Shown: positions 447 to 12,781, counted from the stretch's first letter. The stretch: 15,307 nucleotides of DNA from a virus (IMGVR_UViG_2617270953_000003:1-15307), one strand, 5' to 3'. Notes: generated by a model from the sequence alone, not told the origin. Numbers and translations: made by a program.

Positions 447-626
447 TTAGCTTTTTTCGTTGCCTTCGCTTTCTTTATTAATTTTGACAAACTCGTTTTT
501 ACCACGCTCTCCAAATGCGTCTTTAGAGTCGTTGTATCCGCAATCGCAGCACACATAATCATCAGACCATCCACGCATTGTTTTTTCTTTTGCAATATTT
601 CCAGAACCGCATTTTGGACAAGACAT
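447..626 (-). CDS. small zinc-ribbon protein (59 aa, two CxxC pairs)
   Basis: ATG at 624-626 preceded by GGAGG at 7 nt spacing; protein MSCPKCGSG...CCDCGY has a CxxC...CxxC arrangement. Confidence 0.5.
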   Translation of the reverse strand: MSCPKCGSGNIAKEKTMRGWSDDYVCCDCGYNDSKDAFGERGKNEFVKINKESEGNEKS

Positions 627-722
627 ATCACTACCTCCAAAGCATGAGTGAGATGACAACGTAACATTGATTGGAGATTAACAATAGATTGCTGATGTAA
701 AAGATATGTATAAGCTTCGCTT

Positions 723-1636: not shown

Positions 1637-2128
1637 TCACTCTCCTTTGATGCGAATGCCAGTGGTACTCATTCTCCTGATTTCCCAGAGCACACGAGGA
1701 ACACCACCGTTTCCGACCGGATCGCGCTTACTCCGCATGGCGACGCTTGATTCCGCCCAGCTTTTTCTTGGAGGAAGCTCTTTCACACGAACAAAACCAG
1801 CTGCGCGAAGAGATGCTCCTGATTCATCTGCCTGGGTGTACGTAATACAACGTTGATAACCCATAGCCTTTGCTGCCCGCCAGACAGCACCATAAAGCGC
1901 GCTGTTAGCGTTGCGTTCTCCTGTGGTACATGTGCGATTTACTTCAAGCGTTAATCCATCGTCCAAATGTCGTGCAACAGGTCGACCAGCTGTCGCCACA
2001 CCTATCAATTCTCCGGCATTATTTCTCAGACCAATGCTGAATTTATGCCCCACTGGTGGTTTATTGTGTCGGTGGTGCTGTGCGATAAATTCCTGCGCCG
2101 CTTTCAGCGTTATAGGTGAAATGACCAT
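1637..2128 (-). CDS. hypothetical protein (163 aa), possibly GNAT-fold-like
   Basis: ATG at 2126-2128 with AGGAGG RBS; overlaps the upstream stop by 1 nt (TGATG). Weak GNAT-like pattern (...GVATAG..., ...ALYGAVWRAAKAMGY...AAGF). Confidence 0.5.
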   Translation of the reverse strand: MVISPITLKAAQEFIAQHHRHNKPPVGHKFSIGLRNNAGELIGVATAGRPVARHLDDGLTLEVNRTCTTGERNANSALYGAVWRAAKAMGYQRCITYTQADESGASLRAAGFVRVKELPPRKSWAESSVAMRSKRDPVGNGGVPRVLWEIRRMSTTGIRIKGE

Positions 2129-2607
2129 CACTCAGACTCCTCCTTGATGCCAGCGGCGCGGGAATCATTCCATCGCTTTACTTCTTCACTAATTACGTCA
2201 ATGCATTCTTTCGAATCCATTAGGTAATCTTCATCAAAAAGACGTTCCTGTTCGTTTTCTATCGCAACAATGATTGCTTCAACTAATTTTTGTGCCTGAG
2301 AATCACTTTCTAACTCTGCAATGCGCTTACTCCCATCCGAGATAACACCTTCGTAATACTCACGCTGCTCGTTGAGTTTTGATTTTGTCTCCTCAAGCTC
2401 AACACGCAGCTTCCCTACCGTTAGCGCAATATCCTCGTTCTCCTGGTCGCGGCGTTTGATGTATTGCTGGTTTCTTTCCCGTTCATCCAGTAGTGCCAGC
2501 ACAACCTGAGGTGTGACCTTCATACGAAATGCCAGCAATTTTTGTGGTGTGGCTGCTATTTTTATTGCTTCTGCCGCATCACGCAGTGCCTGATAGTCAA
2601 TTGTCAT
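2128..2607 (-). CDS. coiled-coil-rich phage protein (159 aa), Ea22-type slot
   Basis: ATG at 2605-2607 overlaps the upstream stop (ATGA). Sequence rich in E/K/R/L/Q heptad-like stretches. Confidence 0.5.
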   Translation of the reverse strand: MTIDYQALRDAAEAIKIAATPQKLLAFRMKVTPQVVLALLDERERNQQYIKRRDQENEDIALTVGKLRVELEETKSKLNEQREYYEGVISDGSKRIAELESDSQAQKLVEAIIVAIENEQERLFDEDYLMDSKECIDVISEEVKRWNDSRAAGIKEESE

Positions 2608-3248
2608 TCTCGCCATCCTTCACAGTTGTAATCACTACAGCCTTCAAAATCATATGGGCTGTACTGCCAGGAGATTTTTCCGCAATGCGGACAATTCCAA
2701 CGCACCTTCCCGCTTCGCGACTTCTTTCTTCTGTTCTGCTCTTTCAACCAGTCAGGCATGACCAAACCTGCGCCCTGAACCATTGTTCTGCGGTTAAAGT
2801 TATTGATATTGAACGTCCTGCGCTTTGCTGCATCAGCAATGGAAAATGGCAACCAAACTATTCCTGGTTCGTTTTTGTTGGCGACGCTAAAGATGGTCGC
2901 TTTACTGAAGTCATCTGTTGGCAATCCACCGTGTTGAAGCCAGTAAACATCGTTGCCGTTCCAGCTACCTTTTTTGTAGGCCACATACGCAGTGCAATCT
3001 GACTCAATCAGGCTTTCTGTAGGGATGTACTGGCAATCAACGTGCCACACTGCCATTGCATCCACGCTATCAGCGCAAACAGGCTGATCGATATCTCGCC
3101 CACAATTCCAGGCTTTTTGGGCTTCTTCCAGCGTGTAAACATGAGCGCGATCGATATCAGAACTGTAACCATTGCCGTTATGGCAATGGAATGAAGCGTT
3201 ATTGCCCACAGTTTCACGCGAGCACATCATGTAAAAACGGTTAGTCAC
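2604..3248 (-). CDS. hypothetical protein with Cys/His clusters (214 aa), GTG start
   Basis: AAGGAGG RBS (plus-strand cctcctt at 3255-3261) 6 nt upstream of GTG at 3246-3248, overlapping the upstream stop (GTGA). C-terminal CPHCG...C...C and N-terminal CHNGNG motifs. Confidence 0.5.
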
Positions 3249-3412
3249 TGGCTGCCTCCTTTGCGCCACATCGCATTCAGATATTTGTTTTCATTCACTG
3301 ATGGAAAAGAATTTCTCTTAAGTAATTCCTCTCTCGATGGCATTGGCTTTACGCGTTGGCGAATAATCATTTCTGCCGGAAGAATGCCGGGATTGTATGC
3401 AAGTCCTCTCAT
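3245..3412 (-). CDS. small hypothetical protein (55 aa)
   Basis: ATG at 3410-3412 with GAGGA RBS at 7 nt spacing; the longer tracked ORF (to 3562) overlaps the upstream gene and lacks an RBS. Confidence 0.35.
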
Positions 3413-3422
3413 GGTAAATTCC

Positions 3423-3716
3423 TCAGTCATTACTGATAGCGCCATAACGTGAGCGGTAATTACGCAGGCGCGGGTCAATTTCAGGGAAGTGGGTATATGT
3501 GGCTTTGCGGAATGGTCGGATTGATGTCTGGTAAATTCGCTCGCGTTCTTCTTTCTCTGCAAGCCATATACAGTGGCGAAATTCCTTTTCCTCTTTCGTT
3601 TCCTGCGGTAGAGACATTATCCGGTCGTAGTTTTTTCTGAATTTATCCAGCACCTCCGATACGGAATTGCCGGAACAGCGGCGCACGTCGTCCGCACCAT
3701 ACAGAGGCGCTGGCAT
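3423..3716 (-). CDS. Abc2-like (anti-RecBCD) candidate, 97 aa
   Basis: Sits promoter-distal to erf, where P22-like phages carry abc genes; similar size to P22 Abc2; AAGGA RBS. Identity is from recall and position only. Confidence 0.45.
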
Positions 3717-3739: not shown

Positions 3740-4123
3740 TCAGAATGGGATGGAATCGTCGTATACAGGAGTGTTCTGCTGGTTACTACTTTGCCGCTGC
3801 GGGCCATTTCCTGAAGCTGCAAATCCAATCTTTGCATTCAGTAATTCAAGAGTGATTGATTGACCATTTTGCCCCTGATAAACATCAACCCTGATGTTTT
3901 CTCCGGTAATTTCCACAATTCCACCTTCAACAAGAACACTACGGTAGTAATCCGCTTGCGCTCCCGGCTTGGCAAATACAACGGCGCTGTAGTTTATCCA
4001 TTCTTTCTTTTTTGTCTGGCGATCGTAATACTGAACGCCAGCACGGATGTTGAATCCGATATTTTCCCCGGCCTGAAACTCTCTTGCGGGCTTGTTTAGT
4101 CTTACAGTAATCGAATGTGCCAT
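3740..4123 (-). CDS. ssb: single-stranded DNA-binding protein (short SSB, 127 aa)
   Basis: C-terminal acidic tail ...PVYDDSIPF matches the SSB DDDIPF-type tail; ATG at 4121-4123 overlaps the erf stop (TAATG). Confidence 0.6.
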   Translation of the reverse strand: MAHSITVRLNKPAREFQAGENIGFNIRAGVQYYDRQTKKKEWINYSAVVFAKPGAQADYYRSVLVEGGIVEITGENIRVDVYQGQNGQSITLELLNAKIGFAASGNGPQRQSSNQQNTPVYDDSIPF

Positions 4124-4728
4124 TAAGCAGCCGCTCCTTCTAATTCGTCTCGTCTGATGTTGTAAACGTCCTGCGCTTTGTGCTGCTCCGGTGTGCCTTC
4201 GAGCATCTTCCACGCTTTGGCGAACGCCTGTTTAAGCTCTTCCACGGTGTTTTTCTGCATTGCTGCGTCAGTGAATGCTTTTAGAACCTGTTCAGGTGTA
4301 GGTGATGGTTTTGATTGCTTTGCTGCTGCGTTCTGCTGATGTTTATGCTCGTCTGTATCTGCATCTTTCGCATCATCAATGCCGAACAAACCATTAAGGC
4401 AATACTTGCGCGCATAAGAGCTTGTAGCTCCAGTAACTTGTGCAGAATCCATTCCTTTCTTGCTTTCTTCCTCTCTTGCGAGAGCGGTTGCCGTATGACT
4501 GTTTTCGCCATCGGTAATAGTTGCCGTGGCTTTCACGTAATACCGATCACCAATCAACACAACTTCATCGCTGATTGATAAAAACAGGCCATTCAGTAAC
4601 GGCTTAACGCCTTCAAGAATGTCTTCGCAGCTTCTGTATTTATATTTACCGAATGAGTTGTACTGATTCTTTGGCGCGTTCAGATTCTCCTGAATAGCTG
4701 CCAGTCTTGCATAAAATTCTTTGCTCAT
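4123..4728 (-). CDS. erf: Erf-family single-strand annealing recombinase (201 aa)
   Basis: N-terminus MSKEFYARLA...NAPKNQYNSFGKYKYRSCEDILEGVKPLL matches my recall of P22 Erf; ATG at 4726-4728. Confidence 0.8.
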   Translation of the reverse strand: MSKEFYARLAAIQENLNAPKNQYNSFGKYKYRSCEDILEGVKPLLNGLFLSISDEVVLIGDRYYVKATATITDGENSHTATALAREEESKKGMDSAQVTGATSSYARKYCLNGLFGIDDAKDADTDEHKHQQNAAAKQSKPSPTPEQVLKAFTDAAMQKNTVEELKQAFAKAWKMLEGTPEQHKAQDVYNIRRDELEGAAA

Positions 4729-4829
4729 ATGATTGTTCTCAGAATGGACACGGCCCAAGGAAATAACGCTGATTTAATACTTCTACTCGGGACAAATTAA
4801 GGCATACCCGCATTCCTTCGCGGTCGCCA

Positions 4830-6159: not shown

Positions 6160-6543
6160 TCATCTCGCCGTCAGTTGTTTTGATTTCCGGTATCCTGCTG
6201 CGTAAAGAGCTACATTTGGAAGACATACACCAGTTTCTGGTTGCTTATGTCCAAACTCATTCGCGTACACAATGGCCGCTCTCTCCAGATTGCGTCTGTA
6301 TTCTTTCTGTTGCCAGATCACGTCCTGTGCCATGAACTTAATTGGCTTAGCGTCTTCTATGCGCTCAGGCGTTTCGTGAGTACCTTTAGCCTGAATCTGC
6401 GCTCTGCTTAGAGTAGGGCGGTGTAATACTTCTGAACTTATTGCTTCTTCGCGGGCCAGTACGCCGTTAGCTAATGCCTTTGCCTTTAAACGCTCACGAC
6501 GACGAGAACGTGAATTGCCTTTGAACTGAGTTCTGCGTGTCAT
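6160..6543 (-). CDS. N: N-type transcription antiterminator, P22 gene-24-like (127 aa)
   Basis: AGGAGG RBS 6 nt upstream of ATG at 6541-6543; N-terminal arginine-rich motif RRTQFKGNSRSRRRERLKAK; C-terminus ...VALYAAGYRKSKQLTAR resembles P22 N; first gene after pL and nutL. Confidence 0.7.
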   Translation of the reverse strand: MTRRTQFKGNSRSRRRERLKAKALANGVLAREEAISSEVLHRPTLSRAQIQAKGTHETPERIEDAKPIKFMAQDVIWQQKEYRRNLERAAIVYANEFGHKQPETGVCLPNVALYAAGYRKSKQLTAR

Positions 6544-6671
6544 ATAGACCTCCTGGTGAACTTTGGCGGTGAATACAGCCGGGCGACTAACTCCGGTAGC
6601 GTAATCATTGCAAAGCGCCTCCGCCGAGAAGGTTAGCTTCTGCATTCACCCCAAAGTTCACTTTGGTTATT

Positions 6672-6754: not shown

Positions 6755-6817
6755 AGTATCACCGCCAGTGGTATTTATGTCAACACCGCTAGAGATAATT
6801 CATCACCGCAGATGGTT
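6755..6817 (-). promoter_or_regulatory. OL1-OL2-OL3 operators and pL promoter (lambda immunity type)
   Basis: 17-mers tatcaccgccagtggta (6757-6773), caacaccgctagagata (6781-6797), catcaccgcagatggtt (6801-6817); on the minus strand -35 TTGACA (6778-6783) and -10 GATACT (6755-6760). Confidence 0.85.
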
Positions 6818-7003: not shown

Positions 7004-7382
7004 TTAGGAATCAAGGTCAGGTAGCATGATTTTCTCAATCAACGTCAATGCCCTTTGGTCTCGTTCAGCAAAATATTTAGGAGCGTACTGAGGCAGCCAC
7101 ACTTCGTTGAAGTATTGTTTGAAATCTGCAATATTCGTTTGGGTATAGACGTACCGGGAATGTCCGGCCATCTGGGTACTCATGGTTATATGTTGGGAAT
7201 GTCTTCGGCTCACCCCCCCGGTTGTCACGGAGCCATTGCGAGAAAACCCTACCCTCTGAAATATCAGGGACCATTTTTTCTGGCAGCGTATATCCGGCCT
7301 GTTCAAGTGGCGCAACCAAGTTAAACGTCAGTTCATTAAGCATAGAAAAGTGCGTATGAGGAACTCTGCCTCGGTTTGTCAT
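7004..7382 (-). CDS. rex-slot ORF split across two frames: frame A 7077-7382 (101 aa) and frame B 7004-7327 (+1 offset); possible frameshifted gene
   Basis: Two overlapping minus-strand ORFs offset by +1 share a C7 tract (7213-7219; G7 on the coding strand) and an A6/T6 tract (7275-7280). Frame B ends 10 nt before the terminator; frame A has a poor RBS. Confidence 0.35.
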
Positions 7383-7421
7383 ATACCGCTTAAGGTGGAT
7401 AGGGAGTTCGGCAGGCGCTCT

Positions 7422-7763
7422 TTAACCTGACATCCACTCACGCACCCATCTCGATACTTGCACTGCAAATTTTGGAGATAGCCACTGAGCTAAATTAATT
7501 GCGATGTCTGGATGAACCCAAGTCCCTTGATTCTCTGCTCTTCCGCCTTTAAATGATTGAATTAACTCCGATATGGGAATCCCCATATCGCGTGATAATT
7601 CATCAAAAAAATCTTGTGTTGTTTTTAGTCGTGTATAGTCAGCAAGTAGCTTCCCCGCAGACTTGCACATCGCGGTGGCATTGATGTATCCGTCTTTGGT
7701 GCGAAGATGGATGACTTCTCCATCAACTTCTCTAGCGATTAATGCAAGTTGAAATTGTGTCAT
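7422..7763 (-). CDS. KilA-N domain protein (113 aa), directly downstream of cI
   Basis: Motifs DGYINATAMCK...GTWVHPDIAINLAQWLSPKFAVQVSRWV are typical of the KilA-N (APSES-like) DNA-binding domain; AGGA RBS; starts 31 nt after the cI stop. Confidence 0.75.
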   Translation of the reverse strand: MTQFQLALIAREVDGEVIHLRTKDGYINATAMCKSAGKLLADYTRLKTTQDFFDELSRDMGIPISELIQSFKGGRAENQGTWVHPDIAINLAQWLSPKFAVQVSRWVREWMSG

Positions 7764-7794: not shown

Positions 7795-8511
<717 letters not shown>

Positions 8512-11816: not shown

Positions 11817-12257
11817 ATGAAAAAACTAACCTTTGAAATTCGATCTCCGGCACATCAGCAAAACGCTATTCACGCAGTACAGCAAATCCTTCCAGACCCA
11901 ACCAAGCCAATCGTAGTGATCATTCAGGAGCGCAACCGCAGCTTAGACCAGAATCGGAAGCTTTGGGCTTGCCTTGGTGACGTCTCTCGTCAGGTTGAAT
12001 GGCATGGGCGTTGGCTGGATGCAGAAAGCTGGAAGTGTGTGTTTACCGCAGCATTAAAGCAGCAGGACGTTGTTCCTAACCTTGCCGGGAATGGCTTTGT
12101 GGTAATAGGCCAGTCAACCAGCAGGATGCGTGTAAGCGAATTTGCGGAGTTATTAGAGCTTATACAGGCATTCGGTACAGAGCGTGGCGTTAAGTGGTCA
12201 GACGAAGCGCGACTGGCTCTGGAGTGGAAAGCGAGATGGGGAGACAGTGCTGCATGA
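11817..12257 (+). CDS. ninB: NinB (Orf family recombination mediator)
   Basis: Protein MKKLTFEIRSPAHQQNAIHAVQQILPDPTKPIVV... matches my recall of lambda NinB; real start is the internal ATG at 11817. Confidence 0.9.
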   Translation: MKKLTFEIRSPAHQQNAIHAVQQILPDPTKPIVVIIQERNRSLDQNRKLWACLGDVSRQVEWHGRWLDAESWKCVFTAALKQQDVVPNLAGNGFVVIGQSTSRMRVSEFAELLELIQAFGTERGVKWSDEARLALEWKARWGDSAA

Positions 12258-12781
12258 CTATCAAATCAAATACGCCAGCACACGACAAGGACTGCTGGCA
12301 AACGCCGCTCTGGCTTTTTGATGCACTGGATATTGAGTTTGGATTCTGGCTGGATTCGGCAGCGAGCGACAAAAATGCTCTGTGCGCTCACTGGCTAACT
12401 GAGGCTGACAACGCGCTCAATTCTGAGTGGATAAGCCACGGTGCAATCTGGAATAACCCACCGTACAGCAATATCAGGCCGTGGGTGGAAAAAGCCGCTG
12501 AGCAGTGCATACAACAGCGACAGACGGTAGTGATGCTTGTGCCAGAGGATATGTCAGTCGGATGGTTCAGCAAGGCTCTGGAGAGTGTTGACGAAGTTCG
12601 TATTATCACTGATGGACGGATTAATTTTATCGAACCATCGACAGGGCTGGAGAAAAAGGGAAACAGCAAAGGCTCCATGCTGCTGATTTGGCGACCGTTC
12701 ATCAGTCCTCGACGGATGTTTACTACCGTATCCAAAGCGGCATTGATGGCGATCGGGCAGGGCGTCAGGAGGGCAGCATGA
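12254..12781 (+). CDS. dam: phage DNA N6-adenine methyltransferase (Dam family), in the ninC/ninD slot
   Basis: Catalytic NPPY motif (IWNNPPYSN); ATGA overlap with the ninB stop; size about 175 aa. Confidence 0.8.

Follow-up and report, generated by a model that had tools for sequence, protein, structure and literature searches.

What is encoded by the short leftward gene near the left end of a lambdoid phage segment, and on what might its product act? The question arose at a viral DNA stretch of 15,307 nucleotides (IMGVR_UViG_2617270953_000003:1-15307, hereafter "the window"), for which an initial annotation, made from the sequence alone, had tentatively proposed a protein with a GNAT-like fold among early-left accessory genes. 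The gene and its surroundings, the fold and family of its product, the genes found near or fused to its relatives in other genomes, and the functions that these data make more or less probable are considered in turn below.

The gene and its early-left operon

The DNA of the window as a whole comes from a mosaic lambdoid prophage or phage (HK97/HK106/mEp234-like), and its main features are collected in Table 1. Read from the GTG at 2129-2131, the candidate gene (hereafter "the GNAT gene") codes for 164 aa, and for 163 aa when read from its in-frame second codon, the ATG at 2126-2128, which is the start chosen by PGAP and in the annotation of phage Kapi1; its stop codon lies at 1637-1639. The end coordinate initially given for the feature, 2128, for which no strand was indicated, corresponds to this in-frame ATG next to the GTG start. 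The Shine-Dalgarno-like AAGGAGG falls within the 3'-terminal part of the Ead/Ea22-like gene that precedes the GNAT gene, the TGA stop of the former overlapping the GTGATG start of the latter; the ATG of the downstream PHROG 1714 gene is found one base past the GNAT-gene stop codon. As read from the sequence, the GNAT gene is translationally coupled to both neighbours.

Compared with alleles about 75% identical in DNA, the GNAT gene has a pN/pS of 0.05-0.08, which indicates strong purifying selection on a genuine phage gene. The ORF is not a chance one, since homologues of its product were found in 4,910 clusters at 90% identity and in 3,311 representatives at 50% identity (E ≤ 1e-3). A signal of horizontal acquisition was sought in the GC content, which is unremarkable (0.51 for the gene vs. 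0.46 for the window). As for PADLOC-DB 2.0, it gave no match at E ≤ 0.01 for the GNAT protein or six neighbours, and a defence-system origin of the gene was rejected on this ground.

Table 1. Position and strand of the features discussed in the text, with the evidence or remarks attached to each of them
Feature	Coordinates	Strand	Evidence or remark
XF1762-family, Mom-related CDS with predicted GNAT fold	1637..2131	minus	ORF list, NCBIfam, PHROG, AF2 model, fold searches, pN/pS
Shine-Dalgarno-like AAGGAGG	2139..2145	minus	Read from sequence; 7 nt before GTG, 10 nt before ATG
Upstream Ead/Ea22-like gene	2128..2616	minus	PHROG 250; same operon
Downstream gene, 87 aa	1372..1635	minus	PHROG 1714
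H20-R21-H22 codons, near-invariant HHRHN motif after helix alpha1	2066..2074	minus	Alignment, 94-98%
E63-V-N-R66 codons (ExNR motif, strand beta4)	1934..1945	minus	R66 invariant
N74-A-N-S77 codons, beta4-alpha3 loop (GNAT pyrophosphate-loop position)	1901..1912	minus	Alignment
E103-S-G105-A-S107 codons, beta5-alpha4 junction	1811..1825	minus	E103 96%, G105 invariant, S107 94%
Codons of residues 120-145, 26-aa beta6-beta7 insertion	1697..1774	minus	Near-invariant W125, R136
CI repressor	7795-8508	minus	
pL-like promoter, TTGACA-17 nt-GATACT	6755..6783	minus	Consensus scan; directly upstream of the N-like gene
N-like antiterminator	6160-6645	minus	
Erf	4123-4758	minus	
SSB	3740-4213	minus	
Abc2 anti-RecBCD	3423-3716	leftward operon	

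Leftwards, the order is CI, the pL-like promoter, the N-like antiterminator, Erf, SSB, Abc2, genes without assigned function, the Ead/Ea22-like gene and the GNAT gene, beyond which the operon continues with PHROG 1714, a DUF551-like gene and more small genes. Given this gene order, the description of the GNAT gene as an early-left accessory gene is correct. In the consensus scan, no other promoter match in the left 8 kb is as good as the pL-like site, whose two hexamers are those of lambda pL. No minus-strand terminator-like sites were predicted between 4588 and 383, and the pL-like promoter is the presumed source of GNAT-gene transcription, a link drawn from gene order. Concerning the rightward genes, they comprise cII, O, a DnaB-like helicase, NinB, a DNA methyltransferase, Ant and RusA.

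Several other ORFs of the window deserve mention. The methyltransferase (12194-12781, plus strand; PHROG 111, E 4e-88) is the phage's own and belongs to the nin region; lying about 10 kb from the GNAT gene, it is therefore not adjacent to it here, unlike in phi1026b and several metagenomic loci. The ORFs found at 7004-7763 (minus strand) are flanked by the CI repressor gene on one side and by the pL-like promoter on the other, which is where rexAB lies in lambda. One of them (7422-7763, 113 aa) aligns with the N-terminal portion of PHROG 6287 'BstA abortive infection system' (E 4e-28) and with PHROG 129 'transcriptional regulator' (E 1.2e-23); it might represent a defence moron, intact or truncated, that is expressed in the lysogen. 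At 2604-3269 (minus strand) is encoded a very strongly conserved 221-aa protein (PHROG 2457, E 9e-119), with a C-terminal Cys-rich segment, CPHCGK...CSDYNC, which is zinc-ribbon-like in appearance; PADLOC gave no match for it. In the 70-aa ORF at 447-659 (minus strand; PHROG 2945), cysteines are spaced as CPKC...CCDC, as is usual in small zinc-ribbon proteins. Finally, the SSB-like and Erf-like ORFs, as mechanically listed, have 91 nt in common, and their true starts probably lie further downstream, since the match to SSB sets in only at residue 15 and the Erf ORF opens with a TTG codon.

Fold, family and relationship to phage Mu Mom

The AF2 model of the GNAT protein, for which an alignment of 55 sequences was used as input, has a pLDDT of 89.7 and a pTM of 0.82. 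Its strands (residues 3-7, 31-36, 42-49, 61-69, 94-100, 114-119 and 146-152) and helices (9-19, 75-89 and 106-110) follow the order beta1-alpha1-beta2-beta3-beta4-alpha3-beta5-alpha4-beta6-beta7, which is the GNAT topology; helix alpha2 is not formed, and residues 20-30 are a loop. When the model was compared with the PDB by Foldseek, 436 matches were obtained at E ≤ 1e-3. All 50 of the matches listed are GNATs, and among these Mom (8BV8) comes second by E-value and has the top query-normalised TM-score (0.71-0.73). The model and the fold search thus lend direct support to a GNAT fold for the flagged protein, and the initial guess, for which structure prediction had been named as a check, was borne out; a profile search for Acetyltransf families had been named as well, and there no canonical acetyltransferase Pfam model was matched. 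The three peptides from which an acetyltransferase core had been suspected are all present in the translation: GVATAG (residues 44-49) is placed by the model in strand beta3, ALYGAVWRAAKAMGY (78-92) in helix alpha3, and AAGF (110-113) at the alpha4/beta6 junction.

Sequence searches of the PDB, made with the protein and with the 55-sequence profile, returned chance matches only (HypE, uL5) and did not reach Mom 8BV8, so that fold and profile-profile methods were needed. Among viral structures, the closest to the model is BFVD A0A8S5PZ92 (37% identity), labelled 'Aspartate 1-decarboxylase'. In view of its GNAT fold, this label was probably borrowed from the GNAT regulator of PanD (PanZ/PanM), and the protein would not be a decarboxylase.

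Concerning the family, the protein matches NCBIfam NF045478 (XF1762_fam, equivalog) with E = 7.9e-62 and 207.3 bits vs. a cutoff of 50, residues 4-137 being aligned on model positions 2-130 of 143, and PHROG 1384 'Mom-like DNA modification protein' with E = 4.4e-44. These profile matches directly place it in the NCBIfam XF1762 family. The gene already has entries in NCBIfam and PHROG, and public genomes contain annotated copies almost identical to it; as judged from the predicted model, its product is a structurally verified new instance of a known family, and a short variant of the Mom type. The present finding is mainly a structural confirmation of an existing database annotation, and nothing in it points to an unexpected activity of the family.

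As established for phage Mu (Silva et al. [quoted passage not shown] In the numbering of that paper, which is the GenBank numbering + 10, residues R111, S124 and R151 are essential, H58, Y59, D149, Y159, W48 and W181 are important, and deletion of an HTH-like insertion between beta6 and beta7 (residues ca. 175-209) kills activity (PMC13219725). In Pfam, PF25680 (Mom) is the sole match of the GNAT protein (E 2.9e-5); it spans model positions 3-126 of 202 and its score of 24.2 bits is under the gathering threshold of 27.1. The Mom family is matched by 40 of the 55 relatives (E ≤ 0.01; best E-value 1.6e-7), none of which matches any other Pfam family at this threshold, and three fusion-bearing relatives (P0192, P0164 and P0224) just exceed the Mom gathering threshold, with 27.3-28.1 bits. 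The alignment of the XF1762 family against that of Mom by hhalign gave an E-value of about 3e-4 and a probability of 39-42%. Reciprocal narrow HMMs produced scores that are weak but above those of shuffled controls: all 600 shuffles are outscored by 65 of the 120 real Mom proteins. As for pairwise BLASTP between the GNAT protein and Mu Mom, it was not significant (E 0.26), the best local alignment landing on EVNR/ELNR. These profile comparisons show a distant but specific kinship of the XF1762 protein with Mom of phage Mu, to which the XF1762 family stands as a sister group of shorter proteins.

The conservation figures come from the alignment of 55 sequences, which extends down to about 45% identity, and in which H20, R21, H22, E63, R66, N74, S77, Y98, E103 and S107 are each conserved at 92-100%. 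By hhalign, H20 aligns with His58 of Mom, E63-x-N-R66 with E-L-N-R111 and N74-x-x-S77 with N121-x-x-S124. Two essential Mom positions are therefore kept, Arg111 as R66 (100% conserved) and Ser124 as S77 (94%). R151 is without a clean equivalent, with Q100 opposite to it in hhalign and S104 in an alternative hand register. In the profile alignment, Y159 and Y59 of Mom correspond to L108 and R21, respectively. D149 falls in an hhalign gap and its counterpart is ambiguous; E103, conserved at 96%, is close by, and the beta5-alpha4 junction (E103-S107) is the region of Mom D149/E150/R151. The beta6-beta7 insertion is found at the same place as that of Mom (26 aa vs. 44 aa) and is modelled with a pLDDT of 61-67; within it, W125 pairs with Mom W181 in a relaxed hhalign run, in a low-confidence stretch.

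The beta4-alpha3 loop reads R73-N-A-N-S-A78, with a family consensus of x-N-A-N-S-x, and contains no glycine and no Gly-x-Gly/Ala; Mom has R-N-S-E-S-R at this place, both proteins being without a glycine-rich CoA pyrophosphate loop. Both are also strongly basic, with a pI of 10.5 for the GNAT protein and 9.9 for Mom (family median, 10.0). The differences concern size and expression: Mu Mom (PF25680; PDB 8BV8) has 231 aa vs. 164 aa here, where its N-terminal extension is absent, and it is expressed from a late, Com- and Dam-controlled promoter, whereas the GNAT gene belongs to an early-left operon with a pL-like promoter. No com-like gene was found next to the GNAT gene. On account of this partial match, in residues and in profile, the protein was filed as an XF1762 member and a Mom homologue, outside the strict Mom family. 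Canonical acetyl-CoA GNATs (RimI, 5ISV/2CNM; Bacillus cereus 1Y9K; phosphinothricin acetyltransferases) have no sequence-profile match here, and the XF1762 protein differs from them by its very basic character and its extra, conserved beta6-beta7 insertion.

Genomic associations and candidate functions

Among the representatives at 50% identity, the family domain is fused to D12 N6-adenine DNA methyltransferase, C5 DNA methylase, PAPS reductase, YodL+LPD28 polyvalent and DUF6884 domains. Structural neighbours in BFVD include an 877-aa ART-PolyVal protein, within which the family domain is found, and homing/HNH-endonuclease-like phage proteins of about 500 aa, with weak PHROG matches to their C-terminal regions. 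As for neighbourhoods, the order in phi1026b is Mom-like, DNA methyltransferase and ParB-like, with overlapping stops, and genes close to a family member code for a methyltransferase and an HNH protein in a Mycobacterium prophage, for ArdC-like and PAPS-reductase proteins on a Roseomonas plasmid, and for a C5 methyltransferase on a Streptomyces plasmid.

No fixed partner gene or operon was found across 85 loci of close relatives, the neighbours of which are mosaic (lambdoid Ead/DUF551, P2-type gpA and ParM, Rz lysis genes, SNF2 helicase). Having no fixed neighbour, the protein presumably acts alone, as Mom does. A controlled count was conducted on 56 dereplicated distant loci, with 150 ORFs located within 1.5 kb of the family gene and 150 ORFs located at least 5 kb away. 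By Pfam, the near ORFs include seven DNA methyltransferases, three PAPS reductases and one ParB, families which are absent from the far set among the 25 listed of its 37 families. A local phmmer check returned DNA methyltransferases or PAPS reductases for 9 of the 150 near ORFs vs. 0 of the 150 far ones (Fisher p = 0.0035), which shows an association with DNA-modification genes; this enrichment may simply, or in part, reflect the residence of these genes in the early/replication module, set here against structural modules.

Other fusions were observed in the relatives P0243, P0239 and P0224; they involve a beta-lactamase-fold domain, DUF6884 (in a 968-aa protein) and a serine-recombinase fragment, and could be either gene-calling artefacts or real multidomain proteins.

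In jumbo phages, Mom-type GNAT domains are fused to restriction-endonuclease-fold domains (Iyer et al., PMC7824862). The protein analysed here resembles these fusions in that a Mom-like GNAT domain occurs in a DNA-conflict context, and differs from them in consisting of this domain only, a nuclease partner being absent from the window.

By analogy with Mom, the function we favour, and to which we give roughly even chances, is to modify nucleic acid (most probably DNA) in the manner of Mom, with an anti-restriction or anti-defence role. From the residues, the charge and the associations described above, we infer catalysis, the donor, the nucleic-acid target, the product and this role along the following lines. 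The protein would be a free-standing, very basic (pI 10.5) GNAT acyl- or aminoacyl-transferase, transcribed with the pL, N-antiterminated accessory genes. Its V-shaped beta4/beta5 cleft would hold an activated donor, either the 3' end of an aminoacyl-tRNA, as in Mom, or an acyl-CoA, and Arg66 and Ser77, together with His20/His22 and Glu103, would catalyse transfer onto a nucleobase amine, the nucleic acid being gripped by the basic surface and by the insertion bearing W125 and R136. Phage DNA modified in this way would be shielded from host nucleases, or these nucleases would be otherwise interfered with. Counting against this reading are the Pfam Mom score below threshold, the low hhalign probability, the Mom residues without clean equivalents, the shortened insertion and the early instead of late expression. 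The early-left position is compatible with such an anti-restriction or anti-defence role; the operon carries Abc2 here, and that of lambda carries Ral and Gam.

A conventional acetyl-CoA N-acetyltransferase, acting on a host protein or a small molecule as an early-left host-takeover function, would account for the fact that, among the matches listed, the top structural ones are mostly ordinary GNATs (RimI, phosphinothricin acetyltransferases, NatA/Ard1). We nevertheless regard it as unlikely. Many pL-operon accessory proteins in the window do target host proteins, Abc2 anti-RecBCD being an example, some depositors have labelled Mycobacterium homologues 'acetyltransferase', and host proteins are known substrates of phage GNATs (PMC7824862); Rac of phiKMV, for instance, acetylates the RNA polymerase alpha subunit. 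However, the canonical Acetyltransf Pfam is matched by none of the 55 family members (E ≤ 0.01), and the canonical Acetyltransf/GNAT models find no match in the GNAT protein itself even at E ≤ 10. N-A-N-S moreover stands in place of the Q/RxxGxG/A pyrophosphate loop and Leu108 in place of the alpha4 Tyr general acid, and the enzymes fused to family members or encoded near them are DNA-directed. The pI of 10.5, together with many conserved arginines, suggests a polyanionic substrate, which also argues against a protein or small-molecule acetyltransferase.

The substrate might likewise be RNA: a GNAT acylating or consuming aminoacyl-tRNA (TacT/AtaT-like), or modifying an RNA base (TmcA-like), would reduce the rate of host translation or oppose a defence directed at tRNA. 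The strongly basic character of the protein fits this possibility, tRNA-acting GNATs are well established, and Mom, its sole relative, binds the 3' end of Gly-tRNA(Gly) (PMC13219725). We consider it improbable all the same. Close structural similarity to the type II GNAT toxins (TacT/AtaT/ItaT), in combination with an adjacent antitoxin gene, was not found for the GNAT gene. Very improbable, in our judgement, is a catalytically inert GNAT scaffold serving as a nucleic-acid-binding regulator or as an inhibitor of a host defence protein. Several catalytic-site residues of Mom are not conserved here, and many small pL-operon proteins act stoichiometrically; against this, the segments forming the GNAT active-site cleft contain near-invariant polar residues, as is typical of an enzyme, and a pN/pS of 0.05-0.08 also speaks against an inert protein.

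Distribution and significance of the family

Phages carrying XF1762 members infect Enterobacteria, Burkholderia, Pseudomonas, Mycobacterium, Microbacterium, Streptomyces, Synechococcus and Pelagibacter, and the family is also present on 77 plasmids from several phyla. Identical or closely related alleles of the GNAT gene occur in phages Kapi1, TL-2011a, PhiR44_2 and ZF40, that of the P22-like phage Kapi1 and of TL-2011a being 97-99% identical and at an equivalent position. DNA alleles 95-99.6% identical were found in 144 of 5,426 complete E. coli genomes (about 2.7%), where PGAP names the product "XF1762 family protein". Literature searches (XF1762, Mom-like, momylation; early-left anti-defence acetyltransferases) returned nothing on the XF1762 family, and no experimentally characterised member was found in them.

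For decades, Mom was a one-off curiosity, and the use of a charged tRNA in DNA hypermodification was shown only in 2026. The XF1762 family keeps two essential residues of Mom, is smaller, and is far more widespread. A broader proposal, which we put forward tentatively and hold to be doubtful as a whole, is that XF1762 constitutes a second, much larger Mom-like branch (more than 3,300 clusters at 50% identity, in phages, prophages and plasmids of many phyla) that would install an undescribed nucleobase modification, possibly in an aminoacyl-tRNA-dependent manner. The modification would be made early in lambdoid infection, and a fraction of E. coli prophages, along with their hosts, would carry a DNA (or RNA) hypermodification blunting restriction or other nucleic-acid-sensing defences. 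The presence of the family in about 2.7% of complete E. coli genomes, in Kapi1 and in HK97/P22-like mosaics makes this easily testable. If family members modify DNA, tRNA- or acyl-dependent hypermodification would extend beyond Mu and be a means by which temperate phages and plasmids commonly counter restriction; if they do not, they would offer an example of a re-purposed Mom scaffold.

Two minor observations relate to this distribution. The gene is also present, with a nucleotide sequence 100% identical to that of the window, in the 37.8-kb viral contig IMGVR_UViG_2602041644_000008 (4001-4492), which may represent the same prophage or a sister of it. Also, plasmid-typed records (42-146 kb; e.g. 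NZ_CP138414.1 and NZ_AP024128.1) account for 20 of the 151 E. coli matches, with Ead/Ea22-like neighbours, and these records are presumably phage-plasmids or misassigned prophage contigs.
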